Notes under the pieces: generated by a model
What the model saw: the letters and a program-made list of their open reading frames with translations, nothing else
Database searches by the model: none
What the model was told of the DNA's origin: nothing
Made by a program: the position numbers and the translations under genes
Source: Elusimicrobiota bacterium
GTDB taxonomy: Bacteria; Elusimicrobiota; Elusimicrobia; UBA1565
DNA length: 42,926 nucleotides
Direction: 5' to 3'
Assembly (NCBI GenBank): GCA_043819795.1
Contig: JBDREN010000032.1
Span: 1-42,926 of the forward strand
In this document: one piece after another, positions 8,702-41,520 of the stretch
How the letters are laid out: every line of letters starts with the position of its first letter
Position numbering within the stretch: position 1 is the stretch's first letter

Positions 8702-8712
8702 GGAGACAAGCG

Positions 8713-23817: not shown

Positions 23818-24005
23818 GCCTCCGGGGCGGCACGAGCCTCTGGCTCGCCGGCGGGGGAGGCATCTTCGGCCTGCCCGCCGAGGTCGTCGAGAAGGGCCGG
23901 CCGGAGCTCTCGGGAGCGGGCATCGCGGAGGGCCTGGACGAGACGCGCCGCGCGCTCGACAAGCTGGCGGACTACGAGATCGATATGGAGGCGCTGTGCG
24001 CGTGA
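23772..24005 (+). CDS. Small hypothetical protein (77 aa)
   Basis: Fills the 23817-24002 gap; protein-like composition (…GLDETRRALDKLADYEIDMEALCA); TGA overlaps the next GTG; start uncertain. Confidence 0.45.
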   Translation: MVAARGGAAGERLQLSLRGGTSLWLAGGGGIFGLPAEVVEKGRPELSGAGIAEGLDETRRALDKLADYEIDMEALCA

Positions 24006-25021: not shown

Positions 25022-25046
25022 AACGACGATCCGCCCCCGCAACGAT

Positions 25047-25078
25047 GCGCAATCCCTCCCCGCGGGGGAGGGATGCGC
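25047..25078. repeat. Strong GC-rich inverted repeat in an intergenic gap
   Basis: GCGCAATCCCTCCCC-GC-GGGGGAGGGATGCGC near-perfect hairpin. Confidence 0.7.
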
Positions 25079-25099
25079 GCATGGAGGGACGCGGGTAAC

Positions 25100-26065: not shown

Positions 26066-26486
26066 GGTGTCCTTGGGCCCCGCGGCCGACCGCGTGGCGG
26101 CCTACGGCGCGGCCCACGCCATGACGCATCGCGCCTACGCGGCGCTCGCGCGCGAGGGCAAGGATACCGTCGTGTGCCTTTGGCCCAAGCCGGGCCGGGG
26201 GGGGCGGCCCGCCATGGACGCGCGCGCCCTCGAGCGCGCCTGCCGGCTCGAGTACGAGAACCAGCTCCACCGGTGGGAGATCGCGCGCAACAACGAGTCG
26301 GTGCGCGCGCAGATCGCGCGCCGCATGCTGGACCTCGCCGGGGGCGTGCGGGGCGAGGGCGGGGTGCGGGTCGTGGAGCGGCTCGCTCCCGAGCAGGAGG
26401 CCGCGATCGAGCGCCTGCTCGAGGAGGCCGGGAAGGGGCCCAAGGACCCGCTCGGCATCGCCACGCCCTGGGGGGGCGCGAAGTGA
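26058..26486 (+). CDS. HxsD-like protein
   Basis: AAHAMTHRAY corresponds to the AAYxLTDRAY motif of 28274 and 31463; C-terminal DPLGIATPW motif. Confidence 0.7.
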   Translation: MVKVSLGPAADRVAAYGAAHAMTHRAYAALAREGKDTVVCLWPKPGRGGRPAMDARALERACRLEYENQLHRWEIARNNESVRAQIARRMLDLAGGVRGEGGVRVVERLAPEQEAAIERLLEEAGKGPKDPLGIATPWGGAK

Positions 26487-26932
26487 GGCCGATGATCGAC
26501 GCCGCCGGCGGAGAGGCGGTCGTCCGTCTTCCGAAGGCGTTCTACGAGAAGGCGAGCCTCAAGGCCGCGGCCGACGCCTTCGTGGGGCGGGCGAAGATCG
26601 GGCTGCTGCAGGGCGAACGGGGCGAGCATCGCGTCCTGCTGCGGCCGTCCCGGAGGAAGCTCTTTGATCGCGCCTTCCGCCGGGATCGAGAAGGCCTGCT
26701 CGCCCTGGCCGGCGAGTTCATCAACGAGGCGCTCAGCCACCAGCTCCGCCAGGAAGTGATCCGCTTCAACAACGGCCTGACCGCGCCGGTGCTGGGCCGG
26801 CTTTACGAGAAGGGCTTTCTCTGCGTACCGTGGGACCCGCTCGAGGAGATGGACCGGGGCCTGGCCGGGCGGCGCGGTGCCGAGACCGAGGCGCTCATCG
26901 AAGAGGCCATCCGCATGGGGCGCCGCCGATGA
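26483..26932 (+). CDS. HxsD-like protein
   Basis: LPKAFYEKASLKAAADAF...LAGEFINEALSHQLRQ, matching the EF.NE.L...LR helix of HxsD; GTGA overlap. Confidence 0.7.
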   Translation: MRPMIDAAGGEAVVRLPKAFYEKASLKAAADAFVGRAKIGLLQGERGEHRVLLRPSRRKLFDRAFRRDREGLLALAGEFINEALSHQLRQEVIRFNNGLTAPVLGRLYEKGFLCVPWDPLEEMDRGLAGRRGAETEALIEEAIRMGRRR

Positions 26933-28272
26933 GCTCCAAGCTGACCTGCCTCAAGGAGCTGCCGAAGCTCGACCGCCGCAGCGTCGGCCCGCACCGCTAC
27001 CGTGCGCTCGGCGACAAGGTCCTTGTGACCGGCGATGCCGGGCACTACGCGTTCCTCTCTCCCGGGGAGTACCGCGCGTACCTGCGCGGGATGGACGAGG
27101 GGCATCCGCGCTTCGAGGAGCTGCGCCTCAAGGGCTTTATACGCCACTACATGGAGTTCGACCTCATCGCTTCGGAGGCGCTCGAATCGAGCCTGCTGAG
27201 CTGGGAGGGAGCGAAGAACCACGTGGTCTTCCTGGAGCGGGGCGGGGTCCGCATGGACCCCGATACGGCTCGCGAGGCCGTGGACTTTATCTTCACCGTG
27301 CCCGGCCCGGTGGTGCAGATCGAGATGGTCGCCGGGGACGTCGACGCCTGCTGGCCCGCGGTCTGGCTGCTGGTCCGTTACGCGCGGCGCCGGGCCGAAT
27401 GGAACTCCCGGCTCCTGCGGCTCTGGCTGCGGACCGGGCCCGAGGGTCCGGAGCCGAAGAAGCTCAAGTTCCTCCTCGATCATTCGGTCGGCCTCCGCGT
27501 GGCGTTCGACGGCGCCGCCGGGCCGGGGCGCAAGCCGGCGTGGCGGCGCAAGGTCTCGGAGGCCAGAAGACGCGCGGAGGACATGCCCATGCCTCGCGCG
27601 CTCCTGCGCGTGGCGGCGCGGACGACGCGCCCCCGCGCCTGGGTGGAGCACTGGAAGAGCCTGGGCTGCGGCTCGGTGCGCCTGGCGCCCTCGCCGGAGC
27701 TTCTCGACGAGGGGCGCCTGGAGCCTTTCCTGGATTTCTACGCGCGCGCGCTCGACCGCATGATCGCCGAGCCCGAGCCGGCCCTCCGCGAGGAGTGGGC
27801 CGCGGCGTTCCTGCGCCGCGTGCCTCCCGAGGCTCACCTGCCGCGCGAGGAGCGCGGCGGCCCGCTTCCGGGGCACGACGTGGTCGGCGAGCTGGCGTAC
27901 AGCCCGGAGGGGGGCATCTTCACCAATTCCAACGGGCTCGATCTCGCGCGCAAGGATATGCCGGTCTTCAAGCTCGGCATCGTCGAGAAGACGGCCTACG
28001 AGGAGTTCCCGGACAAGGACCTCGTCCGGCTCAGCCTGGCTGCGCTGGAGGGTGCGCATCAACCGCTCTGCTTCCATTGCGCCTACAAGCCGTACTGCGC
28101 CGTGGCGCCGTCGCAGAACATGCTCGCGCAGGGCTCGTTCTGGGGGCAGATCCCATCGAGCCCGCACTGCGCGGCGCAGATGGGCGTGCTCGACATCCTG
28201 TTCGAGCGGCTCAAGCGCCCCCGGAGCCGGGAGGTCCTTCTGGAATGGACGCATCAATGGAGTTACCTCTGA
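26929..28272 (+). CDS. HxsB paralog lacking the radical SAM CxxxCxxC motif
   Basis: Aligns by eye to HxsB (VTGDAGH, LKGFIR, AVDFIF, LAYSPEGGIFT, CFHCAYKPYC, HC..MGVLDILFERL), but the CxxxCxxC loop is missing and GGE is replaced by AGD. Confidence 0.82.
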   Translation: MSSKLTCLKELPKLDRRSVGPHRYRALGDKVLVTGDAGHYAFLSPGEYRAYLRGMDEGHPRFEELRLKGFIRHYMEFDLIASEALESSLLSWEGAKNHVVFLERGGVRMDPDTAREAVDFIFTVPGPVVQIEMVAGDVDACWPAVWLLVRYARRRAEWNSRLLRLWLRTGPEGPEPKKLKFLLDHSVGLRVAFDGAAGPGRKPAWRRKVSEARRRAEDMPMPRALLRVAARTTRPRAWVEHWKSLGCGSVRLAPSPELLDEGRLEPFLDFYARALDRMIAEPEPALREEWAAAFLRRVPPEAHLPREERGGPLPGHDVVGELAYSPEGGIFTNSNGLDLARKDMPVFKLGIVEKTAYEEFPDKDLVRLSLAALEGAHQPLCFHCAYKPYCAVAPSQNMLAQGSFWGQIPSSPHCAAQMGVLDILFERLKRPRSREVLLEWTHQWSYL

Positions 28273-28273
28273 G

Positions 28274-28939
28274 ATGAAGAGAAAGACGAAATCAGCCAAG
28301 AAGCCCAAGGCCGCGGGAAAAACGCCGAAAGCCGCACCGCGCTCCAAACGCACTTCCCAAAAGGGCGCGGCACGGCCCGGCTCCGCGGTCGAGGCCGCCC
28401 CGCCGTTCATGAAGGACGTGCCGGGCTCCGGCGTCTCGCTGGACCTGGACGCGAGCCTTCACGGCCTCGAGCCGATCCTGGGCGCCGCCTACGCCCTGAC
28501 CGACCGGGCCTATGCGCGGCTCGACGGAGACAAGGGGGGCCGGCTGCGGGTCAGCCTGCGCTCGAAGCGGAGGCTTTCGGCGGAGGGCCTCGACGAACTC
28601 GGCGAGCTTTTCTGGTGCGAGCTCAAGACCCAGAAGATCCGCTGGGCCATCGCCAAGAACAACCTGCCGGTGCGCCAAGCCTTGGTGGAGAAGGCCGTGC
28701 TCCTGGCGCAGGGACGGCTTCCCGAGGAGCCGGTCCCGGCGCCCGCGGCGGCCGCGGCAAGCGAGCCGCCGCCCGAGCAGAAGCTCACCGAGGAGCAGCT
28801 CGCCGAGGTCTCCCGCCTGATCGCCGAGGTGGAGGATGAGATCAAGGACCTCAAGTCCGGGAAGGGGCTCGAGGACCCGGAGCGCATCGCCGCGACCTGG
28901 GAGGAGAAGCACGGCCAGCCCGGGGGAGGGTCCAAATGA
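28274..28939 (+). CDS. HxsD-like protein with Lys-rich N-terminus
   Basis: GAAYALTDRAY, VSLRSK, C-terminal EDPERIAATWEEK. Confidence 0.78.
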   Translation: MKRKTKSAKKPKAAGKTPKAAPRSKRTSQKGAARPGSAVEAAPPFMKDVPGSGVSLDLDASLHGLEPILGAAYALTDRAYARLDGDKGGRLRVSLRSKRRLSAEGLDELGELFWCELKTQKIRWAIAKNNLPVRQALVEKAVLLAQGRLPEEPVPAPAAAAASEPPPEQKLTEEQLAEVSRLIAEVEDEIKDLKSGKGLEDPERIAATWEEKHGQPGGGSK

Positions 28940-29373
28940 CCAAGCTCACGGTGTCGAAGAGGGTCTATTCGGAGGAGGCGCTCAAGCTCGCCGCGAACGT
29001 CTTCTCGCGGCGCGCCCAGGCGGAGTTCGCGGAGGCCGAGAATGGCTGGGAGGTGACGCTCCTGCCGCGGTCCCGGCGCGCATCCAAAGGGGGCCGGGTA
29101 CGGCGCCCCCCCGGGGTCGACGCCGGTCCGCGGGCGCGCGGCTTGGCGGAACTCAAGGCCCTCGAAGGGGAATTCCTCAACGAGCTCTTGAGCCAGGAGT
29201 ACCGCGTCCTCGTGAGCGGCTTCAATAAGCGCATCGCCGGGGTCCTCGTGACCCAGGCGCTCTTCTCCGCGCGGGGGGGCGAGAACCCTCCGAAGCCGCC
29301 GAAGGAGTCCGCGGCTTTCAAGAAGGAGGCCGCCAAGCTGCTGCGGGAAGCGAAGGAGGAGACCCATGGCTGA
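28936..29373 (+). CDS. HxsD-like protein
   Basis: VSKRVYSEEALKLAANVF...LEGEFLNELLSQEYR; ATGA overlap. Confidence 0.72.
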   Translation: MTKLTVSKRVYSEEALKLAANVFSRRAQAEFAEAENGWEVTLLPRSRRASKGGRVRRPPGVDAGPRARGLAELKALEGEFLNELLSQEYRVLVSGFNKRIAGVLVTQALFSARGGENPPKPPKESAAFKKEAAKLLREAKEETHG

Positions 29374-30652
29374 GACGCGCCTGACGAATCCGCCGCTCGA
29401 AGGGTCTGCGCACCAGGAGCGGGTGGCCGGTCACAACTTCCGCCGCGTCGCCGACAAGATCCTGATCACCAACGACGCCGGGCACGGGGTCCTGCTCGGG
29501 GACGCGGATTTCCTGCGCTATCTCAAGGGCGGCGTCTCGAACGAGGAGCCGCTCGGCACGGAGCTGCGCCGCAAGGGTTTCTTCCGTAATTATCTCGACT
29601 TCCGCGCCCTGGCGGGCTGTATGGTGGAGCGTTGGCTGCTGGACTGGAAGGGGCCCGCGATCCATACGATCGCCGTGTCGGGCCGCGCGCCCGGCTCGGC
29701 CAAGCGCATGAGCCCCGCGACCGCCAAGAAGGCGGTGGACTTCGTCTTCTCTGGCGCCGCTCCCGCGCTGCTCATCGAGCTTCGGGGCGGCGGACGGCGC
29801 GCCTGGCCGGTGGTTCGGTTCATCGTCCGCTACGCGAAGAAGAAGAGCGAGGTCCAAAAGCGGTCGCTCTGCCTGCGGCTTTTGGCGGAGCCCGCCGCGC
29901 TCGACGGCGAGAGGGCGCGCTGGCTCGACGAGCAGGGGGTGACCGTATGCGCGCTGCTCGCCGGCGACGGCGTGCCGGCGCCGCCCAAGGGCGCGCGCGA
30001 GGCCGTCTTCACCGTTACGCGGGCCGCCCTGTCCGAGCCCGAGAAGACCGTGGAGCGCCTCATCGCGGCGGGGATCGAGTCGGTGGAGTTTCGCCGCTCA
30101 GAGGAAGGCGACGTCCCGGTGGGCCGGTATCTGGAGTTCTACCGCAAGGCGCTTGCCGCCGTCGTGGAGGCCTGCCGCGGCGGCAAGAAGCTGCGCGAGA
30201 CGGCGGCCGCCGCCCTGCTGGCGAGGATCACGGGCGGCGGCCGCGGCAGCCGCCCGGATGGCGAGGGGCTCTGCTCGCTCGCCTACGGTCCCGACGGGGA
30301 TATCTATACGAGCGACGAGGGGCTGCTCCTGGGCGAGGCTGGAGACCCGCTGTTCCGGATCGGCCGGCTCGGCGAGACGGGATACGACGAGGCCCTCGGC
30401 CACCCCATGGTCCGGGCGGCGCTCCTGGCCGCGAGCCCGTCCACGCAGCCCTTCTGCTTCCAGTGCGCCTACCAGCCCTACTGCCGGGTCCGCCCGGTTT
30501 ACAACTACCGGACCCAGGGAGGCCTCTGGGGCCACATGCCGTCGAACGCCTGGTGCGAGACGATGATGGGGATCTTCGACATCCTCGTCGAGGGGCTGCA
30601 GGGCCGGGAGGGGCCGGAGACGCTGAAGTCCTGGGCCCGGGAGGTCGCTTGA
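29366..30652 (+). CDS. Second HxsB paralog lacking CxxxCxxC
   Basis: ITNDAGH, LRRKGFFR, MSPATAKKAVDFVF, LAYGPDGDIYTSDEG, CFQCAYQPYC, WGHMPSNAWC..MGIFDIL; no CxxxCxxC. Confidence 0.82.
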   Translation: MAETRLTNPPLEGSAHQERVAGHNFRRVADKILITNDAGHGVLLGDADFLRYLKGGVSNEEPLGTELRRKGFFRNYLDFRALAGCMVERWLLDWKGPAIHTIAVSGRAPGSAKRMSPATAKKAVDFVFSGAAPALLIELRGGGRRAWPVVRFIVRYAKKKSEVQKRSLCLRLLAEPAALDGERARWLDEQGVTVCALLAGDGVPAPPKGAREAVFTVTRAALSEPEKTVERLIAAGIESVEFRRSEEGDVPVGRYLEFYRKALAAVVEACRGGKKLRETAAAALLARITGGGRGSRPDGEGLCSLAYGPDGDIYTSDEGLLLGEAGDPLFRIGRLGETGYDEALGHPMVRAALLAASPSTQPFCFQCAYQPYCRVRPVYNYRTQGGLWGHMPSNAWCETMMGIFDILVEGLQGREGPETLKSWAREVA

Positions 30653-30764: not shown

Positions 30765-31466
30765 ATGAGCAAAAGACAAGGCATTTCAAGGCGGGCACGC
30801 CGGTCGGAGCCGGAGGACGGATCCGTACAAGATGGCGGACTCATGCAGCCGGACGAATCCGGCCAGCCCGGCCAGTCCGACCGGACCGGCGAGCCCGCGC
30901 GGCCGGCGGGTCCCACGCAGACGGAGATGCCCGCCGGGGACGAGAAGGTCGTCTCCTCGGTGACCGTGGCCGTCGAGGTGTCCGCTCCCGCGAAGAGCTG
31001 CTTCGCGGTGGCCGCGAACCATTTCAACCTGCCCAAGTGGGCGCATCCTATTAAGGAAGTGCGGCTCGACGAGGGCCGGCGCGAAGTCGACTACCTGCTC
31101 CCGGACGGCATCGTCACCTGCCAGACGCAGAGCCGCACCGACATGAAGCGCGGGGTCGTGGACTGGACGGTGCGCCTGCCCAAGGGCGAGCCGATCCAGG
31201 TATTCTCGCGGGTGGTGCCTCTCGATCCGAGCCGTTCCGTCTACATCTTTACGCTGCTCTCGCCGCCCATGCCGCGCCGGCGGCTCAAGGACGCCTACGG
31301 CGTGGTGGAGAAGAACCTGGTCAAGGACCTCGAGAAGTTCCGGGAGCTGGTGAGGAAGGAGAGCCAGAAGGGCCCCGACGCGCTCGAAGCCGAGCTGCAG
31401 GAGGCTCAGCAGGCGGCCGGCGGGGGCGCGCCGACGCGCTCCAAGGGGGCGAGGAGGAAGAGTTGA
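30765..31466 (+). CDS. SRPBCC/START-like domain protein with low-complexity N-terminus
   Basis: VTVAVEVSAPAKSCFAVAANHFNLPKWAHPIKEV and C-terminal helix LVKDLEKFRELV are typical of the SRPBCC fold. Confidence 0.65.
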   Translation: MSKRQGISRRARRSEPEDGSVQDGGLMQPDESGQPGQSDRTGEPARPAGPTQTEMPAGDEKVVSSVTVAVEVSAPAKSCFAVAANHFNLPKWAHPIKEVRLDEGRREVDYLLPDGIVTCQTQSRTDMKRGVVDWTVRLPKGEPIQVFSRVVPLDPSRSVYIFTLLSPPMPRRRLKDAYGVVEKNLVKDLEKFRELVRKESQKGPDALEAELQEAQQAAGGGAPTRSKGARRKS

Positions 31467-31978
31467 GGTTCAAAGTCTCGCTTCGCTCGGGAGAGGTAGT
31501 CTTCCCGATCCAGAAGAAGCTTTATCCCCTGGAGATCATCCAGGGGGCGGCCTATGTGCTGACCGACCGGGCCTACGCCTACGTCGAGGAGAAGCGGGGC
31601 CTCGGCATCTACGAGCTCACGCTGAGGTCCAGGAAGAAGGCGACGAAGGAGGGGCTCGAGGCGCTCGCCGGGGACTTCCTCAACGAGGTGCTCAACCAGG
31701 CGCTGCGCCAGAGGCTGCTGGCCGACAACCGCTCCGTCATGGAGCACATCATCTCGCGCGCCATGGTCTCGGCGCGCCGGAACGACGAGGACCCGGTCCA
31801 GCGCCGGGAGGCCCCGGACGAGGCGCTCAGCGCCGGGCAACAGGCCGAGATGGAGAAGCTCATCGCCGAGGCGGACGCCGAGATCGCGGCCCGCGCCAAG
31901 GGCAACGGGGAGGGCGATCCCCGCGGCATCAAAAGGACCTGGGAGGAGCGCTTTGGCAAGCCGCGCGCCGGCCGCTGA
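31463..31978 (+). CDS. hxsD: His-Xaa-Ser system protein HxsD
   Basis: LYPLEIIQGAAYVLTDRAY, LAGDFLNEVLNQALRQ, DPRGIKRTWEE; immediately upstream of hxsB; TTGA overlap. Confidence 0.82.
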   Translation: MRFKVSLRSGEVVFPIQKKLYPLEIIQGAAYVLTDRAYAYVEEKRGLGIYELTLRSRKKATKEGLEALAGDFLNEVLNQALRQRLLADNRSVMEHIISRAMVSARRNDEDPVQRREAPDEALSAGQQAEMEKLIAEADAEIAARAKGNGEGDPRGIKRTWEERFGKPRAGR

Positions 31979-33491
31979 GGGGAGCCGACTCACGCAGTAT
32001 CTCCACGTAGGTCGCGTGGACGTCCGTCGCGGGAAGGTCGCGGCCGCCGCCTACCGCCGGGTCGGGAAGCGCTGGCTCATCACCAACGACGCGGGCCACT
32101 TCGCCCAGCTCGACGCGGGGGAGTTCGCGGCGTACCTCGGCGGCAGGCTCGAGAGCGGCGGCGCCCTCTGGAACGACCTGCAGCGCAAGGGCTTCATACG
32201 CGACCACCTGGACTTCGACGCGCTCGTCGACACCTACCGGGAGAAGAACTCGTTCTTGTTCCAGGCCGCGCGGCTCCACATCATCGTCACCACGCTGCGC
32301 TGCAACCACAACTGCGTCTACTGCCACTCGAGCTCCGTGGCCCCCGACCGGTTCGATAAGGACATGTCGGTCGAGACCGCGAGGAAGACGGTCGACTTCA
32401 TCTTCCAGTGCCCGAACCCCACGCTGATCCTCGAGTTCCAGGGGGGCGAGTCGCTGCTCAACTGGCCGGTGCTCAAGTTCATCACGCGCTACGCGAAGCT
32501 CAAGAACGAGGCCGCCAGGCGCAACCTTTTCGTGACGCTGGTCTCCAACTTCAGCATGATGGACGAGGAGAAGTTCCGCTTCCTGGTCTCGGAGATGGTG
32601 GGCGTCTGCACCTCGCTCGACGGCCCGGCGGACGTCCACAACGCCAACCGCGTCTTCACTGGCGGGGACAGCCACGACCGGGTCGTGCGGTGGCTGCGCC
32701 GCTTCCAGGAGGCGGCCGACGGCGGGCTCGACGGCAAGCGGCACTTCAAGCCGGGGGCCCTGATGTCGACGACGCGCCTCAGCCTCGGACACGCCGAGCG
32801 CATCGTCGACGAGTACGTCCGGCTCGGCCTGCCCGGGATCTTCGTGCGGCAGCTCAATCCGATCGGCTACGCCCGCCGCAAGTGGGAGAAGGTCGGATAC
32901 ACGGCGGACGAGTTCCTGGCGTTCTATCGGGAAATGCTGGACCACATCCTCGAGGTCAACCGGGGCGGGACCGTGTTCTACGAGAGGGCGGCGCTCACGA
33001 TGCTGACGAAGATCCTGCTGCTCCAGGATCCCGGCTACGTGGACATGCGCTCGCCCAGCGGCAGCGGCTTCGGCGTGCTGACCTACAACCACGACGGGGG
33101 CGTCTACACGGGCGACGAGGCGCGGATGGTGGCCCGTGAGGGCGACTCCCTCTTCCGGGTGGGCCACGTGGCCGAGAGCCGCTACAACGACATCTTCGAT
33201 CACCCCGTTCTCAAGGCCGCGGCGGTGGCTACCCTGCTCGAGAACCAGCCGTTGTGCTCGCAGTGCGTCTATAAGCCCTACTGCGGGATCGACCCGGTCT
33301 ACAACCGCGAGATCCAGCGGAACATCTGGGGCCATATGCCGGACAACGACCGGTGCCGGCTGTACATGGGGATGTTCGACGTAATCTTCGAAAAGCTGCA
33401 GGACTCCTCTAACAGAAGGGTCTTCGAGTCCTGGCTGAAGGCTGTCGGCCCCGCCGCCCCGGCGGAGCCGGAGGCGACGGAGGTCAGATGA
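31953..33491 (+). CDS. hxsB: His-Xaa-Ser system radical SAM/SPASM maturase HxsB
   Basis: LHIIVTTLRCNHNCVYCH, LEFQGGESLLN, TSLDGPADVHNANR, YVDMRSPSG, YNHDGGVYTGDEARM, CSQCVYKPYCGIDPV; GGAGGAG RBS before TTG. Confidence 0.92.
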   Translation: MASRAPAAEGSRLTQYLHVGRVDVRRGKVAAAAYRRVGKRWLITNDAGHFAQLDAGEFAAYLGGRLESGGALWNDLQRKGFIRDHLDFDALVDTYREKNSFLFQAARLHIIVTTLRCNHNCVYCHSSSVAPDRFDKDMSVETARKTVDFIFQCPNPTLILEFQGGESLLNWPVLKFITRYAKLKNEAARRNLFVTLVSNFSMMDEEKFRFLVSEMVGVCTSLDGPADVHNANRVFTGGDSHDRVVRWLRRFQEAADGGLDGKRHFKPGALMSTTRLSLGHAERIVDEYVRLGLPGIFVRQLNPIGYARRKWEKVGYTADEFLAFYREMLDHILEVNRGGTVFYERAALTMLTKILLLQDPGYVDMRSPSGSGFGVLTYNHDGGVYTGDEARMVAREGDSLFRVGHVAESRYNDIFDHPVLKAAAVATLLENQPLCSQCVYKPYCGIDPVYNREIQRNIWGHMPDNDRCRLYMGMFDVIFEKLQDSSNRRVFESWLKAVGPAAPAEPEATEVR

Positions 33492-34510
33492 GGAAAACGG
33501 CATTCGTGCTGATGGCGGCCCTGGGGGCCCCGGCGGTATTCGCCGCCGAGGCCGAGGCGCCCAAGCCGCCGCCCGGGGCCGTGGCGCCCGCACCCAGCCC
33601 GGACTATTGGTCGATCTGCCTGGAGGACGTCAAGACCGACGAGGAGTTGATCCGGCAGGGCTTCTTCTGGATGGGCGACGCCAAGGTCGTGAAGCGGGTG
33701 ACGGGGCGGCTGGCGGGCCACCTGGCCTGTCAAGGCCGGGCCAAGCGCCAGAAGGACCCCTGCAAGGACCTCGACCGCATGCAGCCCGCGTTCCGATACG
33801 AGAAGGAGATCGGCACGCTCAAGTCCCAATGCCGGTGGCTCAACCGCTACGCGGACTTCTGGTGGGAGATGATGCGGGCTAAGAAGCGGCAGAGGAAGTT
33901 CCCGGCCTGCATCGCCTACCTCGACTCGCTCGTCGAGCCGGTCAAGTTCTTCGACGTCAACGCCGAAGCCCCCCGCAGCGAGTCCGCGGACCCGGAGAAC
34001 GCCAAAGAGGGGACCGACGAGGGGAAGTTCTGGAACGTCTGCAGCGTGCTCTCCAAGCGCTTCCAGGCCGGGAAGGCCGATGTCTGCCGCGCCGATCCGC
34101 GCATCAAGTACTACAAGGGGAAGGACGTCACGGATGAAAAGTGGGACATGGTCTGCGCGAAGGTCGGCCGCATGTGGGTGAAGGGTGAGGAGGATTTCTG
34201 CGACTGGCTGAAGCCGCACGATGAGAACTGCCGTGCGGAGGCCGCGATGACGAGGGCCTTTTTGAAGCTCGACCACCGGGCCTGCCCGCAGAGCGGCGTC
34301 GAATACGGGATATGCTCCTACTACCTCAAGACGAAGCGGAGCGGGGGCTGCCGGCCCGTATGGGAGACGTTGGTGTCCGATTTCTGCTCCGAGCGCTCGA
34401 AATACGGTTTCGACGAGCTGCCGAAGAACCCGAAGTCGGCGCAGGAAGAGCCTGGGAAGACCCCGAGTGAGACGCCGAAGCCGTCGCCGAAACAGAGGCG
34501 CCGGAGATAA
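33488..34510 (+). CDS. Secreted cysteine-rich hypothetical protein
   Basis: Sec signal MRKTAFVLMAALGAPAVFA, Pro/Ala linker, 14 Cys; ATGA overlap with hxsB. Confidence 0.8.
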   Translation: MRKTAFVLMAALGAPAVFAAEAEAPKPPPGAVAPAPSPDYWSICLEDVKTDEELIRQGFFWMGDAKVVKRVTGRLAGHLACQGRAKRQKDPCKDLDRMQPAFRYEKEIGTLKSQCRWLNRYADFWWEMMRAKKRQRKFPACIAYLDSLVEPVKFFDVNAEAPRSESADPENAKEGTDEGKFWNVCSVLSKRFQAGKADVCRADPRIKYYKGKDVTDEKWDMVCAKVGRMWVKGEEDFCDWLKPHDENCRAEAAMTRAFLKLDHRACPQSGVEYGICSYYLKTKRSGGCRPVWETLVSDFCSERSKYGFDELPKNPKSAQEEPGKTPSETPKPSPKQRRRR

Positions 34511-34524
34511 CTGAGGAGATTGAA

Positions 34525-34833
34525 ATGGCTGCCAAGAAAGGGAAGAAGAAGACGAAGCGTGTCAGCAAGAAGAAGCTGATCGGCGGGGTGAAGAAGGGGG
34601 CCGAGATGTTCTTGACGTCGGAGGAAGGCAAAGTGGTCAAGCAGGACGTGGTCAAGACCGCCACGGCGCTCGGGATCATCGGGACGGCCCTCCTGAAGAG
34701 CGCCCACGATCTGCCGGCCGCGCCGCACTCCAACTACCTGCACAGCTCGGGAGGCGTGGGCGGCCATACCAGCCACGCCAGCCACGGCTCGCACGGGAGC
34801 CACGGCTCGCACGGGAGCCATTTCTCGTTCTAA
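34525..34833 (+). CDS. hxsA: His-Xaa-Ser repeat precursor peptide (HxsA family)
   Basis: GAGGAG RBS; Lys-rich N-terminus, FLTSEEGK motif, hydrophobic stretch, core HSNYLHSSGGVGG-HTS-HAS-HGS-HGS-HGS-HGS-HFS-F. Confidence 0.92.
   Translation: MAAKKGKKKTKRVSKKKLIGGVKKGAEMFLTSEEGKVVKQDVVKTATALGIIGTALLKSAHDLPAAPHSNYLHSSGGVGGHTSHASHGSHGSHGSHGSHFSF
34780..34820 (+). repeat. 18-bp tandem repeat encoding (SHGSHG)n within the precursor
   Basis: AGCCACGGCTCGCACGGG occurs twice exactly, followed by AGCCA. Confidence 0.9.
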
Positions 34834-34886: not shown

Positions 34887-35966
34887 GTGCTGCATCCAAA
34901 CGACGCGATCAGAGTCTATGAGCTGCTCGTGGGCTACGCCTGCAACGCGAAGTGCCTGTTCTGCTCGCAGGAGTTCGCGTGGCGCGGCCTGCCCGCGCTC
35001 ACCTTCGAGCAGATGGCCTCGAAGGTCTACCAGGCCTACCGCGAGGGGACCCGGGTCCTCGTGATCGACGGGGGGGAGCCCACGGTCCATCCCGACCTCC
35101 CCAAGCTCGTCGCCTTTAGCCGGCGCGCCGGCTTCCGTGAGATCCACATCCAGACCAACGGGATACGCTTCGGCGACCGGGCCTACGCCGACGCCCTGAC
35201 GGAGGTCGGGCTCAACCTGGCCCGGATCTCGATACACGCCCACACCCCCGAGCTCCACGACGCGCTGCTGATGGCGCCGGGGGCGTTCAGGAAGGCTCTC
35301 GCCGGGATCGAGAACCTGCGCCGCCGCGGGGCCCATGTGGCGGCCAACATCCTCGTCAACCGGATGAACTATAGGACCCTGCCCGACTACTTCCGGTTTT
35401 TCTACGATGAGATCGGGCTGCGCGACTTCGGCATCATCTTCCCGCTCTACGAGGGGGACATGGCAGTCAACGCCGGCCGGATCGGCGTGAGGATGAGCGA
35501 GGCCGCGCCCTACGTGCGGGAGTCGTTCGAGCTGTTCCGGGAGCGCGGGGCGGAGCCGCCGTTCCTGCTGAACTTCATCCCCTGCGGGGTCCCGGGCTAC
35601 GAGAGCCGGATGCTGCGCTGGTCGGGCGACAGCGCGGGGATCTACGACTTCGAGAAGAAGCTGCTCTTCGACCCGGAGCGCTACACCCTCGAGCATCCGA
35701 CGGGCCTGAAGGCGGGGCTGGACGCGGTCGCGCGCAAGAACAAGGTGATGATCGGCGCGTGCCGCGGCTGCGCATACTCCGAGCGGTGCCTCGGCTGCGA
35801 GAAGGACTACGCGGAGCGGTTTGGAGGCTCGGAGTTCACGGCCTTCAAACGTGAGCCCGAGCCCTTCGACGGCGGCTGGGGCGCGGAGGCCGGCAGGTGG
35901 CGCCGCATCCTCACCCCCGAGGAGCACCGCTCGCTGCGGGAAAAGCGGGCGGCGGAGAGGGCATGA
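34887..35966 (+). CDS. Radical SAM protein (HxsC-like), paralog of 22519
   Basis: YACNAKCLFCSQEFAWR, DGGEPT, IQTNG, PLYEGDM, NFIPC, CRGCAYSERCLG. Confidence 0.88.
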   Translation: MLHPNDAIRVYELLVGYACNAKCLFCSQEFAWRGLPALTFEQMASKVYQAYREGTRVLVIDGGEPTVHPDLPKLVAFSRRAGFREIHIQTNGIRFGDRAYADALTEVGLNLARISIHAHTPELHDALLMAPGAFRKALAGIENLRRRGAHVAANILVNRMNYRTLPDYFRFFYDEIGLRDFGIIFPLYEGDMAVNAGRIGVRMSEAAPYVRESFELFRERGAEPPFLLNFIPCGVPGYESRMLRWSGDSAGIYDFEKKLLFDPERYTLEHPTGLKAGLDAVARKNKVMIGACRGCAYSERCLGCEKDYAERFGGSEFTAFKREPEPFDGGWGAEAGRWRRILTPEEHRSLREKRAAERA

Positions 35967-37111
35967 TCGCCTTCGAGGTGGGGCTCGGCTACGGCTGCGG
36001 GGTGAAATGCCGCTTCTGCGCGCAGAAGCGCGAATGGCGGCGCATCCCCCCCCTGCCCTTCGATCTCATCGCGCGGCAGATGTACATGGCCCACGCGGAC
36101 GGCTACCGGAGCGTCTGCTTCACCGGGGGCGAGCCCACGCTCTACAACGACCTTCCGAAGATGGCGGCGCTGGCCCGGCGCATCGGGTTCACCTACATCC
36201 GGGTGCAGTCCAACGGCATGCGGCTGGCCGATCCCGCCTACGCGGGGCGGCTCATCGACGCCGGAGTGAACTTCTTCCGGGTCTCGGGCCACGGACACAC
36301 GGCGGAGCTGCACGACTGGCTCGTGCAGACGCCCGGCGCCCTGGAAAGGCTCTTCGCGGCGGCGGAGAACATCCGCTCGCGCGGCGTCGAGGTCGGCGTC
36401 AATTTCCTGATCAACGCCAGGAACCACGCGACGCTCCCCGAGTTCTGCGACGAGTTCCTCGGCCGGGGCTTCACCGATTTCGTGATCGTCTACCCGCTTT
36501 ACGAGGGCGACCTGGCGGAGAACGCCGGGGAGCTGGGCGTGCTCATGGCGGAGGCGGCGCGCGGCTTGCGGCGGGCGCTCGAAGTGTTCGACCGCCGCCG
36601 AGCGGACTATCCGAGAGTGCTCAACTTCACGCCGTGCGCGGCGCCGGACCTGATCCCGATCATGGTGGCGTGGTCGCCGCATTCCTCCATCATGGCGGGC
36701 GGCGACGGGGTCCCCGCGGACTTCTACGTGGCCGCCAACGAGTCCCGCGTCAAGACCGCCGCGTGCCGGGGATGCGCGTTCGGCGCGGAGTGCCGGGGCT
36801 TCAACGCCGGCTACCTGAAGCGCTTCCCGGACGAGGGGCTGGGGGCGGTGGCTTCGGAGCACGAGGGCGCGGCCAAGGTCGCGCGTCGGCTGGGCGGTCG
36901 CCGCATCCTGCGCGCCGGCGACGCCTTCTTCGACGAGGAGCGGCGGGAGGTCGCCCGGCTGGTGCAGCCCCTGGTGGACCAGGAGGTGTGCAAGACGGAG
37001 GTCCAGGTCGAGCGGATGGCGCTGGCGTTCGACGCGGAGGAGAGCGGGCTCGTGCAGCAGCGCTCCGTATGGCGCGAACCTCTGTCTTCGAAGGAGGCGG
37101 CACGTGCCTGA
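35963..37111 (+). CDS. Radical SAM protein (HxsC-like), paralog of 22519 and 34887
   Basis: YGCGVKCRFCAQKREWR, FTGGEPT, VQSNG, PLYEGDL, NFTPC, CRGCAFGAECRG; ATGA overlap. Confidence 0.88.
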   Translation: MIAFEVGLGYGCGVKCRFCAQKREWRRIPPLPFDLIARQMYMAHADGYRSVCFTGGEPTLYNDLPKMAALARRIGFTYIRVQSNGMRLADPAYAGRLIDAGVNFFRVSGHGHTAELHDWLVQTPGALERLFAAAENIRSRGVEVGVNFLINARNHATLPEFCDEFLGRGFTDFVIVYPLYEGDLAENAGELGVLMAEAARGLRRALEVFDRRRADYPRVLNFTPCAAPDLIPIMVAWSPHSSIMAGGDGVPADFYVAANESRVKTAACRGCAFGAECRGFNAGYLKRFPDEGLGAVASEHEGAAKVARRLGGRRILRAGDAFFDEERREVARLVQPLVDQEVCKTEVQVERMALAFDAEESGLVQQRSVWREPLSSKEAARA

Positions 37112-38126
37112 CGCGCCTTTCTGGCAGAAGTGCAACAGCCACTGCGTGATGTGCACGAACTCCGACGCGTACATCAACGAGCCCGACGCGAGGTACGGGC
37201 TCGCCAAGCACCTGCGCAAGATCGCCGAGTTCAAGGCGGACCCGGGCGACCGTAACGTGTACTACCAGAACGGCGAGCACGGCGGCTACTTCCTCTTCAC
37301 CGGGGGGGAGCCCACCCTCAACCCCGATTTCCTGCGCCTTCTCGCCGAGTACCGGAAGAGCTTCCCAGGGACGCCTATTACGCTTCTGACCAACGGGCGG
37401 CTCTTCTGCTACGAGGACTTCGCCCGGGAGACGATGCTCGCCGGCGGGAACCCGTTCGAGGTGGCGGTCGCGGTCCACGGCCCGGACGCCGCGGCGCACG
37501 ACGCGGTCACCCGGACGCCGGGCAGCTTCGCGGAGACCGTCGAGGGGCTCGGACACGCGCTCAAGCACCGCGGCCCGGGGCAGGCCGTGGAGATCCGCGT
37601 GGTCCTGCACCGGCGCACCGCCGGGATGCTCGAGCGCACTTTGCGTTTCCTCCTCGAGACCTTCCCGGACGCCTCGGGCTACCGCCTCACGCTCGTCTAT
37701 TTCGAGGCCGAGGGGCAGGCCGCCAAGAACTTCGAGCGCATCCGGATCACGCTCACGGACTGCGCCGCGCGCGTCGCCGCTTGCCGCGGCCTGCTGGGAC
37801 GGTTCCGGGAGCTGCGCCTCTACCATTTCCCCCTGTGCGTGCTCCCGGAGACGCTCTGGCCGCACGCGTGGCGCTCGCTGCCGCGCTACGAGATCATGCA
37901 CGTGAAGGCATGCGGCGCGTGCGCGCTCAACGACGTGTGCGTGGGGCCCCACGATTGGTACGCGGAGCGCTTCGGCGTCTCCGAGTTCAAGCCGTTTCAG
38001 GCCCGGCGCAGCCTGGTCTTGAGCGGGAACCCCTTTCACCCCATCGCCTCCGTCGGCGAGGGGACCGTTCCCTGGACGCCCGCGCGGGTCGTCGACGAGA
38101 AGAAGGATGAGGCCGTACGCTGGTAG
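37104..38126 (+). CDS. Radical SAM protein (HxsC-like), paralog of 25100
   Basis: MPDAPFWQKCNSHCVMC, FTGGEPTLNP, LTNGRLF, HDAVTRTPGSF, LYHFPLCVLP, CGACALNDVCVG; AAGGAGG RBS. Confidence 0.88.
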   Translation: MPDAPFWQKCNSHCVMCTNSDAYINEPDARYGLAKHLRKIAEFKADPGDRNVYYQNGEHGGYFLFTGGEPTLNPDFLRLLAEYRKSFPGTPITLLTNGRLFCYEDFARETMLAGGNPFEVAVAVHGPDAAAHDAVTRTPGSFAETVEGLGHALKHRGPGQAVEIRVVLHRRTAGMLERTLRFLLETFPDASGYRLTLVYFEAEGQAAKNFERIRITLTDCAARVAACRGLLGRFRELRLYHFPLCVLPETLWPHAWRSLPRYEIMHVKACGACALNDVCVGPHDWYAERFGVSEFKPFQARRSLVLSGNPFHPIASVGEGTVPWTPARVVDEKKDEAVRW

Positions 38127-38138: not shown

Positions 38139-39623
38139 GTGAGCCGCGTCACTAAGAAAGCCAAGGCCGGGAAGATAACAGCGGGGACCTACGACGCCAT
38201 CGTGTTCGGGGGCGGGCCGGCGGGCAGTACGGCCGGGAACCTCCTGGCGCACAAGGGATACCGAGTGCTGGTCATCGAGAAGGACCGCTTCCCCCGCCAC
38301 CACATCGGGGAGTCCCTGCTTCCGGGTCTCAACTCGCTCTACCGGCGCCTGGGCGTTGAGAAGCGTCTCATGCGCTCGAATTTCTTCCTGAAGACCGGCG
38401 GCACCTACATCTGGGGACCCACGCGCAAGCCCTGGTCGATCTGGTTCATGGACCTGAGCGAGGCCCCCACGTACCTGGACGAGCGGAGCCAGACCTGGGC
38501 CTACCATGTGGACCGGGACCGCTTCGACAAGATCCTCCTCGACCAGTGCGCCCGGCGAGGGGCCGAGGTGGTCCAGCCCGCGCTCGTGAAGGACGTGGGC
38601 ATGCGCGGCAGGACGATCACGCACGTGGACTACGCGACGGAGGATGGGAAGACGCATCGCGCGCGGGCCAAGTTCTACTTCGACGCGACGGGCCTGGCGG
38701 GGCTGATGGCCCGCAAGATGCGCTGGCGCGTCTTCGAGAAGCAGCTGCGGCACATCGCGGTCTACTCCTACTTCGAGGGAGCGCGCCTGCTGCCCGGCGA
38801 GCACCGCTACCAGATCTTCGTGGTGAACAACCCCGACGGCTGGATCTGGTACATCCCGCTGGCCAAGAACCGCGTGAGCGTGGGGGTCGTGACCTCATCC
38901 AAGCGCCTCGCCGAGGCCAAGAAGGACATGGCGGGCTTCCTCATGCGCAGCATCGAGCGCGCCCCCGAGGTGGCCAAGCTCCTCAAGCGCGCCAAGCGGA
39001 CCCAGCCCATGCGCATCGACCGGGACTGGTCCTACTGCGCTCGCCGGTTCATCGGCGACAACTTCCTTTTGATCGGCGACGCGGCGTCCTTCATCGACCC
39101 GCTGCTCACCTACGGGGTGGCCATGGCCATGCACGCGTCGGCGCTCGCGGCCGACTGCGTGGACCTAGCCCTGCGCGAGCCCAAGCGGGGCAAGGAGTTC
39201 CTGGAGCACTTCGAGAAGGTGCACCGTCACCGCTACAAGGACATCCTCGACTTCGTGAAGTTCTTCTACAGCGGCAACCGCCAGCGGAAGGAGTATTTCT
39301 GGAAGGCCCGGCGGATCCTCAACTATCCGGGCAACAGCTACGCGAAGTACGCCTTCACGTTCATGGCCTCGGCGCACTACCTCTGGAAGTCGTACCTGTA
39401 CGTGGCCTACTTCCGGCAGATCTTCCAGCCGATCGGCCTGCCCGTCGAGCGCCTGCGCAAAGACCGCAAGTTCCTCGAGGAGGTCAAGCGGATCCGCACG
39501 ATGGACCTGGCGTTCATCGACGAGCCCCTGCTGCGGCCCGGGGAGAGGCGGTCGCTGGTGGCCGAGGAGGCGAAGTTGGCGAGGCTCGTGGAAAAGGAGG
39601 TCAAAAGGCGGATGCGCCGATGA
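38139..39623 (+). CDS. Flavin-dependent halogenase
   Basis: GGGPAG FAD motif, FPRHHIGESL, FFLKTGG (candidate catalytic Lys), GWIWYIPL (WxWxIP), GDAASFIDPL; GAGGAGGAG RBS. Confidence 0.87.
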   Translation: MSRVTKKAKAGKITAGTYDAIVFGGGPAGSTAGNLLAHKGYRVLVIEKDRFPRHHIGESLLPGLNSLYRRLGVEKRLMRSNFFLKTGGTYIWGPTRKPWSIWFMDLSEAPTYLDERSQTWAYHVDRDRFDKILLDQCARRGAEVVQPALVKDVGMRGRTITHVDYATEDGKTHRARAKFYFDATGLAGLMARKMRWRVFEKQLRHIAVYSYFEGARLLPGEHRYQIFVVNNPDGWIWYIPLAKNRVSVGVVTSSKRLAEAKKDMAGFLMRSIERAPEVAKLLKRAKRTQPMRIDRDWSYCARRFIGDNFLLIGDAASFIDPLLTYGVAMAMHASALAADCVDLALREPKRGKEFLEHFEKVHRHRYKDILDFVKFFYSGNRQRKEYFWKARRILNYPGNSYAKYAFTFMASAHYLWKSYLYVAYFRQIFQPIGLPVERLRKDRKFLEEVKRIRTMDLAFIDEPLLRPGERRSLVAEEAKLARLVEKEVKRRMRR

Positions 39624-40576
39624 GGACCGACGAGTGCTTCGAGTGGGCCCGGCGGCACCATGGCCTCGGGCGGACCAGGGCCGTGGAAGAGGTCCGCGCG
39701 GTCCTGGACGCCCTCGCGTCCAGCGCGCCGCCGGGGCGGCTGGCCACGAACCATTTTCAGGCGTGCCTCAACGACCGGGACCTGTTCGGGGTCGTGAAGC
39801 TGGTTCATGTGGCTGAGCCACCGGCGCCCCCCCCGCGGGGGGGCGCCCATGTAGGGGGGGCTGATTTGGTTCTTGGCCGCCGCAAGGCTCTGCGCGCGGT
39901 CTTCCGCCGGCTCAACCGGGAGCGCGGCACGCGCTTCGACGACTCTTTGCTCGACCGGGTCTACGGGGCCATCGTCGAGGGCGGGGCCGGGGGCTGGTAT
40001 CCGATCTTCGGCTTCGAGTTCCATCCCGACGGAGAGCTGTTCCCCGAGATCAGCCTCTACGCCGAGCATCGCGCGCCGCAGGCGGCTCTCGCGGCCGCCC
40101 GGGCCATGCCCGGCGTGGACGTCGCGCGGGTGGAGGGCCAGCGGGACCGGATTTTCGCCCTCGGTCTCGACTTCCTCGCGGACGGGGGGGCGCGGTTCAA
40201 GCTCTATCTGGACACGGAGCCGGCCGCGGCGGCCGGACTCCTGCACGAGCTCGACGCCCGGCTTCATCCGGCCCGGTCGCTCACCTTGCTGCGCACGCGG
40301 CCCGAGGGAGGGTTCGAGGAGCGGAGCAAGGCCTATGTCCCGCTCCAGGCTCGGGAGCCCGGGCGGATCACCGATCTGGCCGGCGAGGATTTTCCAAACG
40401 TCGCGCGCGGCCGCCTGCTCGCGTTCGCCCGGCGCGTGGCCCGGGCGGTATACGGCTACCACCTGTTCTATATCGGCGCTTCGGAGGAGAAGATCGAGGT
40501 CTATTTCGGCAGCGGCAACCCCGTGGGCGATCCCATGATCCGCCGCGCGGCCGAGGCCCGGGAGTCCGGAAGGTGA
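39620..40576 (+). CDS. Hypothetical protein, possible ABBA/PT-barrel (cyanobactin F-like) prenyltransferase fold
   Basis: ATGA overlap; repeated beta-strand motifs FGFEF..EISLY, ALGLDF..ARFKLY, YIG..KIEVYF; paralog of 40573. The CDS is well supported; the fold call is tentative. Confidence 0.6.
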   Translation: MRTDECFEWARRHHGLGRTRAVEEVRAVLDALASSAPPGRLATNHFQACLNDRDLFGVVKLVHVAEPPAPPPRGGAHVGGADLVLGRRKALRAVFRRLNRERGTRFDDSLLDRVYGAIVEGGAGGWYPIFGFEFHPDGELFPEISLYAEHRAPQAALAAARAMPGVDVARVEGQRDRIFALGLDFLADGGARFKLYLDTEPAAAAGLLHELDARLHPARSLTLLRTRPEGGFEERSKAYVPLQAREPGRITDLAGEDFPNVARGRLLAFARRVARAVYGYHLFYIGASEEKIEVYFGSGNPVGDPMIRRAAEARESGR

Positions 40577-41520
40577 ACGCCACCGACATCCTGAACTGGA
40601 CGCGGCATCACTACGGGGCCGCGGTCCGCCCCATCATGCGGGACTTGGAGCGGCAGATCGACCTGCTCACGAGCGCGGGCGGGGAGGGCGTGTTCATCCT
40701 CGAGTTCTTCGAGGCGGCGATGAACAACCACGACCTCTTCAACCGCGTCAAGCTCGTGCACGTGGCGCAGTTCTACGAGCAGATCCGGGAGCAGCGCAAG
40801 CGCGAGATCGCGCGGCGCCGCCGGCAGTGCCTCCGCGAGATCTTCGACAAATGGGGAATGAACCCGGAGCCGCTCGAGCGCATGTACGACCACGTCTTCG
40901 CCCACGGGCTCCACACCTATTACCCGGTCGCGAGCGTGGAGTGGGACGTGCCCTCGGGGAAGTTTCAGGAGGTGAGCATCTACACCGAGACCGACTGCGC
41001 GCGCGTCGCGGCCGCCATCGCCAGAGGCCTGGGGGTGCCCAAGAAGGGCCTGGCGCGCACGCTCGGGCTCGACCGGATGTTCGCGGTGGGCTACGATTTC
41101 CGTCCCGGCAAGCCAAGCCGCTTCAAGCTCTATCATACCCATCCCCTCACAGTGGAACGCCTGCGCCGCTACTCCTCGGCCAAGCCGTACTTCACCATGC
41201 CGAAACGGATGCTCCCGAAGGAGTACCTCGTGCTCAAGCGCAAAACCGAGGGGGAGGACTTCGAGGACACGCGGAAGGTGTACCTGCCGTACCTGGCCCG
41301 GCGGTCGATCAACGAGGGGCACACGATCTTCGGGATGGCCGCCCATTGCCGGAAGGGCATACTGAAGGATTTCTTCAAGAACATCCGCCACACGGCCGAC
41401 GGGACGTTCCTCGACTATATCGGCTGTGAGGGCACCAAGATCGAGGTCTATTACGGGAAGCCGTCTTTGGGCTGGTCGGAGGAGTCGTTCAAGTCCGGCC
41501 GCGCCATGAGGGGGATATAG
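40573..41520 (+). CDS. Hypothetical protein, paralog of 39620 (possible ABBA prenyltransferase fold)
   Basis: Shared motifs W.R.H.G, N..DLF..VKLVHVA, YP...E...E.S.Y, FA.G.DF....RFKLY, K.Y.P, YIG...KIEVY.G; GTGA overlap. Confidence 0.6.
   Translation: MNATDILNWTRHHYGAAVRPIMRDLERQIDLLTSAGGEGVFILEFFEAAMNNHDLFNRVKLVHVAQFYEQIREQRKREIARRRRQCLREIFDKWGMNPEPLERMYDHVFAHGLHTYYPVASVEWDVPSGKFQEVSIYTETDCARVAAAIARGLGVPKKGLARTLGLDRMFAVGYDFRPGKPSRFKLYHTHPLTVERLRRYSSAKPYFTMPKRMLPKEYLVLKRKTEGEDFEDTRKVYLPYLARRSINEGHTIFGMAAHCRKGILKDFFKNIRHTADGTFLDYIGCEGTKIEVYYGKPSLGWSEESFKSGRAMRGI

Follow-up and report, generated by a model that had tools for sequence, protein, structure and literature searches.

The window, by which we mean the whole 42,926-nucleotide stretch of DNA analysed here, carries a co-directional gene cluster that runs from position 20418 to the contig end (Table 1). 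Within the cluster lies a short ORF whose product, hereafter the precursor, ends in a His-rich repeat array. As the preliminary description had read it, residues 81-101 form seven consecutive HxS triplets in the order HTS-HAS-(HGS)x4-HFS, followed by Phe102 and preceded by the separate motifs H68-S-N and H73-S-S, and the translation contains no Cys and no Trp. The basic N-terminus (12 K/R in residues 1-28), the FLTSEEG motif and the uncharged stretch behind it were likewise found where they had been described. Residues 64-102 contain no K or R, and the last 39 residues hold nine His at a period of three and carry no net charge apart from His.

A six-frame scan of the 4.99 Mb genome yielded 38 runs of two HxS triplets, no runs of three to six and two longer runs, namely those of the precursor (seven) and of a paralogue on contig C120 (12). 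None of 100,000 residue shuffles reached four or more consecutive triplets. These counts and shuffles show that the HxS array is not due to chance. The ORF has a GC3 of 0.91 at the third codon position and is a genuine small gene. The longest HxS run in its relatives ranged from 2 to 39 (median 9), so the count of seven is no constant of the family and could reflect assembly collapse. Within part of the array, an 18-bp unit is repeated exactly in tandem. A search for a sigma-70 promoter of the precursor found none, and the one terminator-like hairpin inside the repeat was at chance level.

Table 1. Features of the cluster and of the precursor gene, with two protease genes on other contigs of the genome.
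Feature	Coordinates	Strand	Basis and remarks
HxsC/HxsC4-like radical SAM genes, four (20418, 22519, 23996, 25073)	within 20418..26065	+	none passes the HxsC cut-off; gene at 20418 assigned solely by BLAST to other HxsC-like genes and by Pfam
SufS-like cysteine desulfurase	21197-22522	+	
HxsD-like genes, four (26058-26486, 26492-26932, 28274-28939, 28936-29373)	26058..29373	+	two below TIGR03976 cut-off
HxsB-like pseudo-enzyme without CxxxCxxC	26830..28272 (true start near 26930)	+	
HxsB-like pseudo-enzyme without CxxxCxxC, C-terminal Cys cluster kept	29366..30652	+	
SRPBCC/polyketide-cyclase-fold protein	30765..31466	+	PF10604
HxsD	31463..31978	+	TIGR03976, 52 bits (cut-off 50)
HxsB radical SAM maturase, CxxxCxxC intact	31953..33491	+	TIGR03978, 480.5 bits (cut-off 370)
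Cys-rich protein (14 Cys), signal-peptide-like N-terminus	33488..34510	+	no Pfam or NCBIfam match
Shine-Dalgarno-like GAGGAG, 6 nt 5' of ATG	34513..34518	+	sequence
HxsA4-like precursor, 102 aa	34525..34833	+	ORF; NCBIfam NF038313 38.7 bits (cut-off 55), NF038309 22 bits (cut-off 65)
FLTSEEG motif, residues 29-35, end of basic amphipathic segment	34609..34629	+	putative protease recognition site, predicted cut after Gly35
Uncharged stretch T45-L57, 13 residues	34657..34695	+	conserved small residue at +11 (A46); G50/G53
Pre-core motif H-S-N-Y-L-H-S-S-G	34726..34752	+	family consensus HxNxLHNSG, 60/100 leaders
Seven consecutive HxS triplets	34765..34827	+	in part an 18-bp tandem repeat
HxsC/HxsC4-like radical SAM genes, three, directly 3' of precursor	34887..38126	+	best TIGR03977 score 148.8 (cut-off 267.9)
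FAD-dependent halogenase/monooxygenase-like protein	38139..39623	+	PF04820; CmlS 248 bits, below cut-off
Paralogous pair (39620-40576, 40573-41520)	39620..41520	+	29% mutual identity
FAD-linked oxidase, cut by contig end	41523..42926	+	PF01565
FlaK-like GxGD protease	C4:15983-17311		outside the window
Protease paralogue	C120:68492-69883		next gene after the paralogous precursor

The cluster contains one true HxsB, about 1 kb upstream of the precursor, two HxsB copies that lack CxxxCxxC, five HxsD-like genes and seven HxsC-like genes. Four of the HxsD-like genes are interspersed with the dead HxsB copies, and all four match a purpose-built HxsD profile. The best HxsC score in the cluster was 164.9 bits on TIGR03977, below the cut-off of 267.9. 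The row for window 26931 was left out of alignment A5, being in the wrong frame. The arrangement of the cluster is syntenic in the related genomes G001 and G010. In a BLAST recount (the ORF caller was crude, and profile labels mixed radical-SAM subtypes), 42 of the 47 homologous loci contained an HxsB-like gene; the other five comprise three loci cut by the contig start, one orphan and one Poribacteria locus. The idea that the precursor is a radical-SAM substrate gains from this linkage and from the upstream HxsB that scores over its cut-off, and points to a substrate of the Hxs type. Judging from its sequence and neighbours, the precursor is probably modified by the adjacent radical-SAM enzymes.

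Three HxsB-like proteins without CxxxCxxC are encoded in the genome (window 26830-30652; L002:5969-7531), and they retain the C-terminal Cys cluster. Their positional counterparts in genomes G010, G034 and G035 are intact.

Two other kinds of cluster protein drew our attention. The paralogous pair near the contig end had no library match. The product of the second gene was modelled as an ABBA aromatic prenyltransferase barrel (pLDDT 87.8), for which Foldseek returned DMATS (E 1e-8) and PirF, a cyanobactin F enzyme (4e-7). Enzymes of the cyanobactin type include some that prenylate His. A third relative of the pair sits on contig C4. The Cys-rich protein directly upstream of the precursor is one of an unnamed family whose members neighbour HxsB/HxsA in many loci, with cross-HMM E-values of 3e-7 to 7e-8 against its positional counterparts. 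It is probably secreted and is a candidate periplasmic partner of the peptide. Atlas searches gave no family name for either this protein or the precursor.

Ahead of the cluster, the window contains further features. Window 16043-17225 holds a tRNA-Ser(TGA) between two ORF6N-type genes, one of them confirmed by Pfam, which both match the PADLOC candidate PDC-S05; the region is a possible integration site, 3 kb ahead of the cluster. On the minus strand, window 10332-13639 encodes a PqqD-radical SAM/SPASM protein and then a membrane protein whose Cys-rich tail, GCACAGCACACACAGGGR, may be a substrate of that enzyme. To judge from the translations, window 1629-9592 encodes an adenylate-cyclase/response-regulator protein, a hybrid histidine kinase, and the small and large subunits of a NiFe hydrogenase with a maturation protease.

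We then asked to which known peptides the precursor is related. Its match to NF038313 (HxsA4) covers residues 23-101 with an E-value of 1.4e-9, and both this score and that on NF038309 (HxsA3) lie below the model cut-offs. Among 50 family members, 49 matched both models at E <= 0.1. The precursor resembles HxsA4 and HxsA3 in being a short HxS-repeat protein, and it differs in staying under both cut-offs and in its neighbours, the best of which scored 137 against a cut-off of 500 on the accompanying HxsC4 model (NF038332). Near relatives of the precursor are already catalogued in NCBIfam; a literature search found no published paper that names the HxsA4, HxsA3 and HxsC4 models. In the broad sense the precursor belongs to the Hxs type, having tandem HxS triplets (seven consecutive plus one) and adjacent HxsB and HxsD genes that score over their cut-offs.

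A protein search identified 49 relatives among 313 candidates, and a genome scan identified 47 precursor loci. Most of the latter come from records titled Elusimicrobia, and the rest from Patescibacteria-type and Spirochaetes records, one Gammaproteobacteria record and one Poribacteria record; the host is accordingly taken to be a member of the Elusimicrobiota. Of 41 related genomes, 25 carried the precursor (23 of the 30 of high quality), and so did 20 of 201 genomes sampled across the phylum, where it was confined to three families. Cys occurred in 41 and Trp in 71 of 100 family cores, so the absence of both from the precursor is not a family trait. Family-wide, K and R together make up 160 of 5,198 core residues, and the middle residue of HxS is mostly G (842), A (176) or S (146).

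The chemistry of the core can be compared with two characterised systems. The only HxsA system studied is the four-gene HXS of E. coli (PMC13128918), in which one SHRSS motif of HxsA is changed by +8 Da (+C/-4H). In triceptides, the enzymes HtkB, HaaB and YhhB crosslink the His-C2 of His-x-x motifs to a C-beta (PMC11499958). The precursor shares with triceptides the His-first aromatic-X-X motifs beside radical-SAM enzymes, and it differs from them in its maturase families and its membrane-targeting leader, its own crosslinks being putative. The preliminary description had considered a poly-cyclophane plausible, to be checked by a loss of 2 Da per triplet. Such a poly-cyclophane, with one His-C2 to C-beta crosslink per HxS or HxN triplet, would suit the small X residue and the precedent of the three enzymes, and -2.016 Da changes were allowed in the HXS mass search of PMC13128918. 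Nevertheless, we regard it as doubtful. The one HxsA examined bears +8 Da on one motif, and the window HxsB scored 480 bits as HxsB against 41 and 45 bits on the triceptide synthase models (XyeB 41/450, YhhB 45/445), the neighbours in general scoring far better as HxsB/HxsC than as XyeB/YhhB. In addition, eight intact radical-SAM enzymes together with flavin and prenyltransferase-fold proteins suggest several reactions. Crosslinking of the core is plausible, and a loss of 2 Da per triplet is one option among several.

We next considered the leader, which the preliminary description had likened to that of Flp/class III prepilins. In an unanchored alignment of relatives, drawn from a search that favours sequences sharing words with the query, L30 and E33 were invariant and F29, E34 and G35 were conserved in at least 90%. 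FLxxEEG is therefore conserved among homologous precursors. A motif-anchored profile of 100 distinct leaders, in which positions -7, -6, -3, -2 and -1 are constrained by the anchor pattern, had K after the Gly in 84%, followed by I/V, D/N at +6 and K at +9 (88%); position +11 was always A, G or S. The same leader sequence was not found in any other protein of the genome (two matches in 61,483 frames).

Like the leaders of Flp/class III prepilins, that of the precursor is hydrophilic and ends in Gly (G35). The F-L-x-x-E-x-G register is also shared: F-7, L-6 and E-3 occur in the same register in 9 of 51 Flp-like proteins of the same phylum, which were chosen by a pattern that fixes G/A at -1 and E at +5. 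According to reviews (PMC4471445, PMC12075869), the class III signal consists of Gly-1, about 21 hydrophobic residues that follow it directly, and Glu+5, and is served by FlaK/PibD-type peptidases; processing can do without Glu+5, whereas polymerisation requires it (PMC4471445). In contrast to Flp/Tad prepilins, the precursor has Q40 in place of Glu+5, which occurs in only 14 of 100 leaders, and no Tyr+6. Positions +1 to +9 hold about four charged residues in these leaders versus about one in Flp, and the uncharged stretch starts only at +10, with a median length of 13. The precursor thus does not qualify as a pilin, yet it can still serve as a protease substrate. A true Flp-like pilin, polymerising to display the His array, would explain the register and the prepilin-type protease described below, but it is very improbable: the precursor lacks Glu+5, its hydrophobic stretch has 13 rather than about 21 residues, the genome has no PF04964 match and the cluster proteins scanned include no pilus assembly genes. 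By pattern, the genome contains 13 class III prepilin-like ORFs. Two other export routes were rejected, since the RR of Tat substrates occurred in 2 and a lipobox in 0 of 100 leaders.

Besides a normal prepilin peptidase on contig C92, the genome encodes two longer A24-like proteins, on C120 and C4. The whole-protein Pfam A24 score of the protease was 21.5, below the cut-off of 26.5. Both Asp motifs (D23, and D92 in AGDxK) were invariant among 18 protease sequences. The top structural match of the C4 protease model (pLDDT 88) was FlaK (3s0x), with 176 of 186 residues aligned at an rmsd of 3.4 and a Z of 11.7, short of the value of about 13 below which the tool advises caution with helical bundles; the next-best match had a Z of 6.1. 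This FlaK match was resolved by the wide VIA search alone, since Foldseek found FlaK only at E = 2 and nothing under E 0.001, and a PDB sequence search with the protease profile returned only designed helical proteins.

The protease is inherited together with the precursor. Among the 41 relatives it was present in 25 of 25 precursor genomes and 2 of 16 others, and in the phylum sample in 20 of 20 and 2 of 181, respectively; the two samples overlap and the genomes are kin, hence these counts are not independent. Two genomes in each sample thus carry the protease without a detected precursor, and one of the two among the 41 relatives is 84% complete and has HxsB. Physical linkage is looser. No more than 10 kb separate protease and precursor in 9 of 47 loci (7 of the 21 that span at least 19 kb), and in one other family the two genes share a contig and strand in 10 of 10 cases, 5-66 kb apart. 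We link the C4 protease to the window locus through its orthologue (49% over 429 aa), the only such protease in G001, where it is encoded 67 kb downstream of that genome's cluster syntenic to the window. In G001 and G000, a fibronectin protein and ASPIC/UnbV proteins are encoded between or beside the Hxs cluster and the protease; a 4,351-aa fibronectin type III repeat protein occurs at L096:9-13064 (loci L096, L095, L047 and L042). HxsB was present in 26 of the 41 relatives and tracks the precursor as well as the protease does, so the Elusimicrobiota counts alone cannot separate protease from maturase. They show only that the protease is a member of the system.

The separation came from a second peptide family. 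The leader profile matched 92 times in the loci, and a single match, in a Poribacteria genome, lacked an HxS core. This genome encodes six or seven precursors with the FLxSEEG leader and Cys-rich, non-HxS cores, several of which adjoin a protease of the FlaK-like type. The Poribacteria proteases match Pfam A24, all but one below the cut-off, and two of the matches include the archaeal C-terminal domain. The best HxsB score in the genome was 90 bits against the cut-off of 370. The Elusimicrobiota and Poribacteria leader profiles aligned over 22 columns around the motif with an hhalign probability of 95.9%. In a survey with a single-protein query, 15 of 41 genomes contained the Poribacteria precursor, and the protease was found in 13 of these 15 and in none of the 26 without it, so that 39 of 41 genomes were concordant. 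Since this pairing occurs where no HxsB reaches the cut-off, the leader travels with the protease and not with the core or the maturase family, although binding to a common recognition domain may also play a part. Conversely, three canonical HXS loci, all on plasmids, had neither the FLxSEEG motif nor the protease. We conclude that the link between the FLxSEEG leader and the FlaK-like protease is well supported, and that cleavage of the one by the other is a prediction from these sequences. The earlier comparison with prepilins is thereby better supported than before, since in two unrelated peptide systems the leader is inherited together with a FlaK-fold GxGD protease. What stands is the leader register and its protease; the precursor itself is not such a prepilin, and no assembly machinery was found with it.

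The Poribacteria FLxSEEG Cys-rich peptides are apparently an undescribed family. They share the leader motif and the adjacent FlaK-like protease with the precursor and differ in their Cys-rich cores and in having glycosyltransferases and a methyltransferase instead of HxsB/C/D. The srp proteusins of Poribacteria have NHLP leaders and therefore appear distinct from this family. Two Poribacteria operons encode glycosyltransferases with PqqD-like N-termini together with a methyltransferase, and the motif could accordingly be the ligand of a recognition element. Poribacteria loci include L094:7979-9288, L153:9939-19521 and L155:275-8794 (G229), and a single genome can hold as many as 18 precursor matches; besides the two PqqD-like-domain glycosyltransferases and the methyltransferase, a UshA-like multiheme/thioredoxin protein is encoded there.

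We propose that the precursor is a radical-SAM-modified HxS peptide with a dedicated membrane protease, a model that we hold to be probable. HxsB, HxsD and several HxsC-like enzymes, whose genes surround the precursor, would act in the cytoplasm on the HxN/HxS core, probably crosslinking His to side chains and/or adding carbon as reported for E. coli HxsA, and the prenyltransferase-fold and flavin enzymes may decorate the core further. The 13-residue hydrophobic stretch would then enter the inner membrane and leave the basic N-terminus on the cytoplasmic side. The FlaK-like GxGD protease, either that of C4 or its C120 paralogue, is predicted to recognise the FLxSEEG helix and to cut on the cytoplasmic side. 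A cut between G35 and K36 is the favoured site, at somewhat better than even confidence, because the motif before the Gly is the part common to Flp and the Poribacteria family. The small residue at +11 in both families makes a cut between A46 and T47 conceivable, if rather improbable. The modified His-rich core would come to lie outside the inner membrane, tethered or freed by a second cut, where it may be bound by the adjacent Cys-rich protein, and no pilus would be polymerised.

A different division of labour would make FLxSEEG a mere docking site for the N-terminal domain of HxsB (or for HxsD), with export by Sec and signal peptidase I and with the GxGD protease cutting another protein of the cluster. 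The leader does have a layout of basic n-region, short h-region and Ala-rich c-region, Ala-Gln stands just ahead of the pre-core motif in 36 of 60 leaders, and two canonical HxsA2-type leaders also contain 'FL'. The N-terminal domains of HxsB and of the Poribacteria glycosyltransferases furthermore resemble radical-SAM N-termini or PqqD. Against this, the maturases of the two systems are wholly different, yet the leader motif and the protease persist in both. AxA sites were no commoner in the leaders than in shuffles (65 vs 64.5 of 100, by a crude core-start rule that can pick a linker His). Another protein for the protease to cut was also not apparent, as no further protein bears the leader and screening C32, C4, C96 and C208 by pattern revealed no convincing class III substrate. 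We therefore consider this arrangement unlikely.

A conserved, unnamed family, c7 (L077:6171-6857, L051:6009-6977 and about 20 other loci), lies upstream of HxsD-HxsB-HxsA in many Elusimicrobiota loci and is not found in the window. It has a motif like TLTTYYPAP and a C-terminal Cys-Cys. Despite a weak PilS match (E 0.015) it was not accepted as the protease substrate, since inspection by eye revealed no class III motif in its sequences.

Returning to the leader with its protease, we attach about equal weight for and against to a broader proposal. FLxSEEG and the FlaK-like protease may form a portable module for leader removal and membrane targeting, co-opted from Flp pilin processing and common to unrelated peptide classes, namely the radical-SAM His-repeat peptides of Elusimicrobiota, Patescibacteria and Spirochaetota and the glycosylated Cys-rich peptides of Poribacteria. 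In the present genome the module would yield an envelope-delivered, multiply crosslinked and possibly prenylated His-Gly-Ser polymer, with dead HxsB copies as scaffolds and a network of loci.

Further Hxs genes lie on contigs C96, C120 and C4, which suggests cross-talk among the Hxs loci of the genome. The second locus (C120:67279-77990; L001, L002) encodes HxsD, a dead HxsB, a Cys-rich secreted protein, two B12 radical-SAM proteins, the 12-repeat precursor, the protease and a methylase-TPR protein. The third (C96:20800-25300; L041) contains HxsD, an intact HxsB and HxsC-like genes, and no precursor was found there; by eye, the gene ahead of it resembles one for a DtxR/FeoA-type metal regulator.

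HxS-repeat systems, whose original prediction is credited to Haft and Basu in PMC9062424, had no assigned function until a 2026 paper linked the four-gene form to a block of phage DNA entry. In that paper (PMC13128918), E. coli HXS delays the entry of phage DNA. [quoted passage not shown] The window cluster shares with canonical HXS (HxsD-HxsB-HxsC-HxsA; TIGR03976-03979; PMC13128918) the HxS repeats and an HxsB and one HxsD that score over their cut-offs. N-terminal processing and envelope targeting are expected in both. In contrast, the window cluster has about 20 genes rather than four, includes two dead HxsB copies, has no HxsC over the cut-off and adds the FLxSEEG leader and FlaK-like protease that were missing from all three canonical loci. 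In a quick, unfinished tree with long branches, which was used for this point only, the three canonical HxsBs formed their own supported clade.

The predicted role is an envelope function, and among such functions defence against phage entry is the single likeliest, though still tentative, with metal handling close behind. In its strictest form, the former would equate the precursor in function with the HXS antiphage effector, that is, a periplasmic peptide binding incoming phage DNA. The HxsB/HxsD/HxsC-type machinery, the HxS repeats (as in PMC13128918) and the membrane-targeting leader favour this. However, the HXS model needs basic repeats, and the C-terminal core of the precursor has no K or R and no peptidoglycan-binding domain (no Pfam match), so that the DNA-binding model is harder to carry over directly. 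The precursor also had no PADLOC match (in a 2023 library that predates HXS), and its near-fixed presence in three families looks like a lineage trait rather than a patchy defence island. We therefore regard direct equivalence as possible at best.

The alternative is that the His array is a Cu-, Ni- or Zn-binding peptide, a chelator or cofactor scaffold, sent to the cell envelope. The periodic His residues of the core and the variable repeat number of the family agree with it, as do the nitrogenase-component-like genes flanking one related locus, where two nitrogenase component 1-like genes (L040:5793-8499) adjoin Hxs genes. Conversely, neither a metal transporter nor a metal regulator was recognised among those cluster proteins that were scanned, His-C2 crosslinks could alter coordination, and unmodified poly-His needs no maturases. 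On balance we judge metal binding to be somewhat unlikely. A structural role of the core in the envelope may be a further option beside it.

A literature search that covered few subscription papers found no description of this variant or of a prepilin-type leader protease. What the variant adds for HxS peptides is a candidate dedicated protease together with a conserved, predicted cleavage motif. If this is true, a prepilin-type intramembrane protease would join the known means by which modified peptides lose their leaders. The leader and protease together also provide a simple handle for genome mining, which has already exposed the Poribacteria peptide family. An unusual leader inherited with a dedicated pilin-type membrane protease thus points to an undescribed membrane processing of such peptides.
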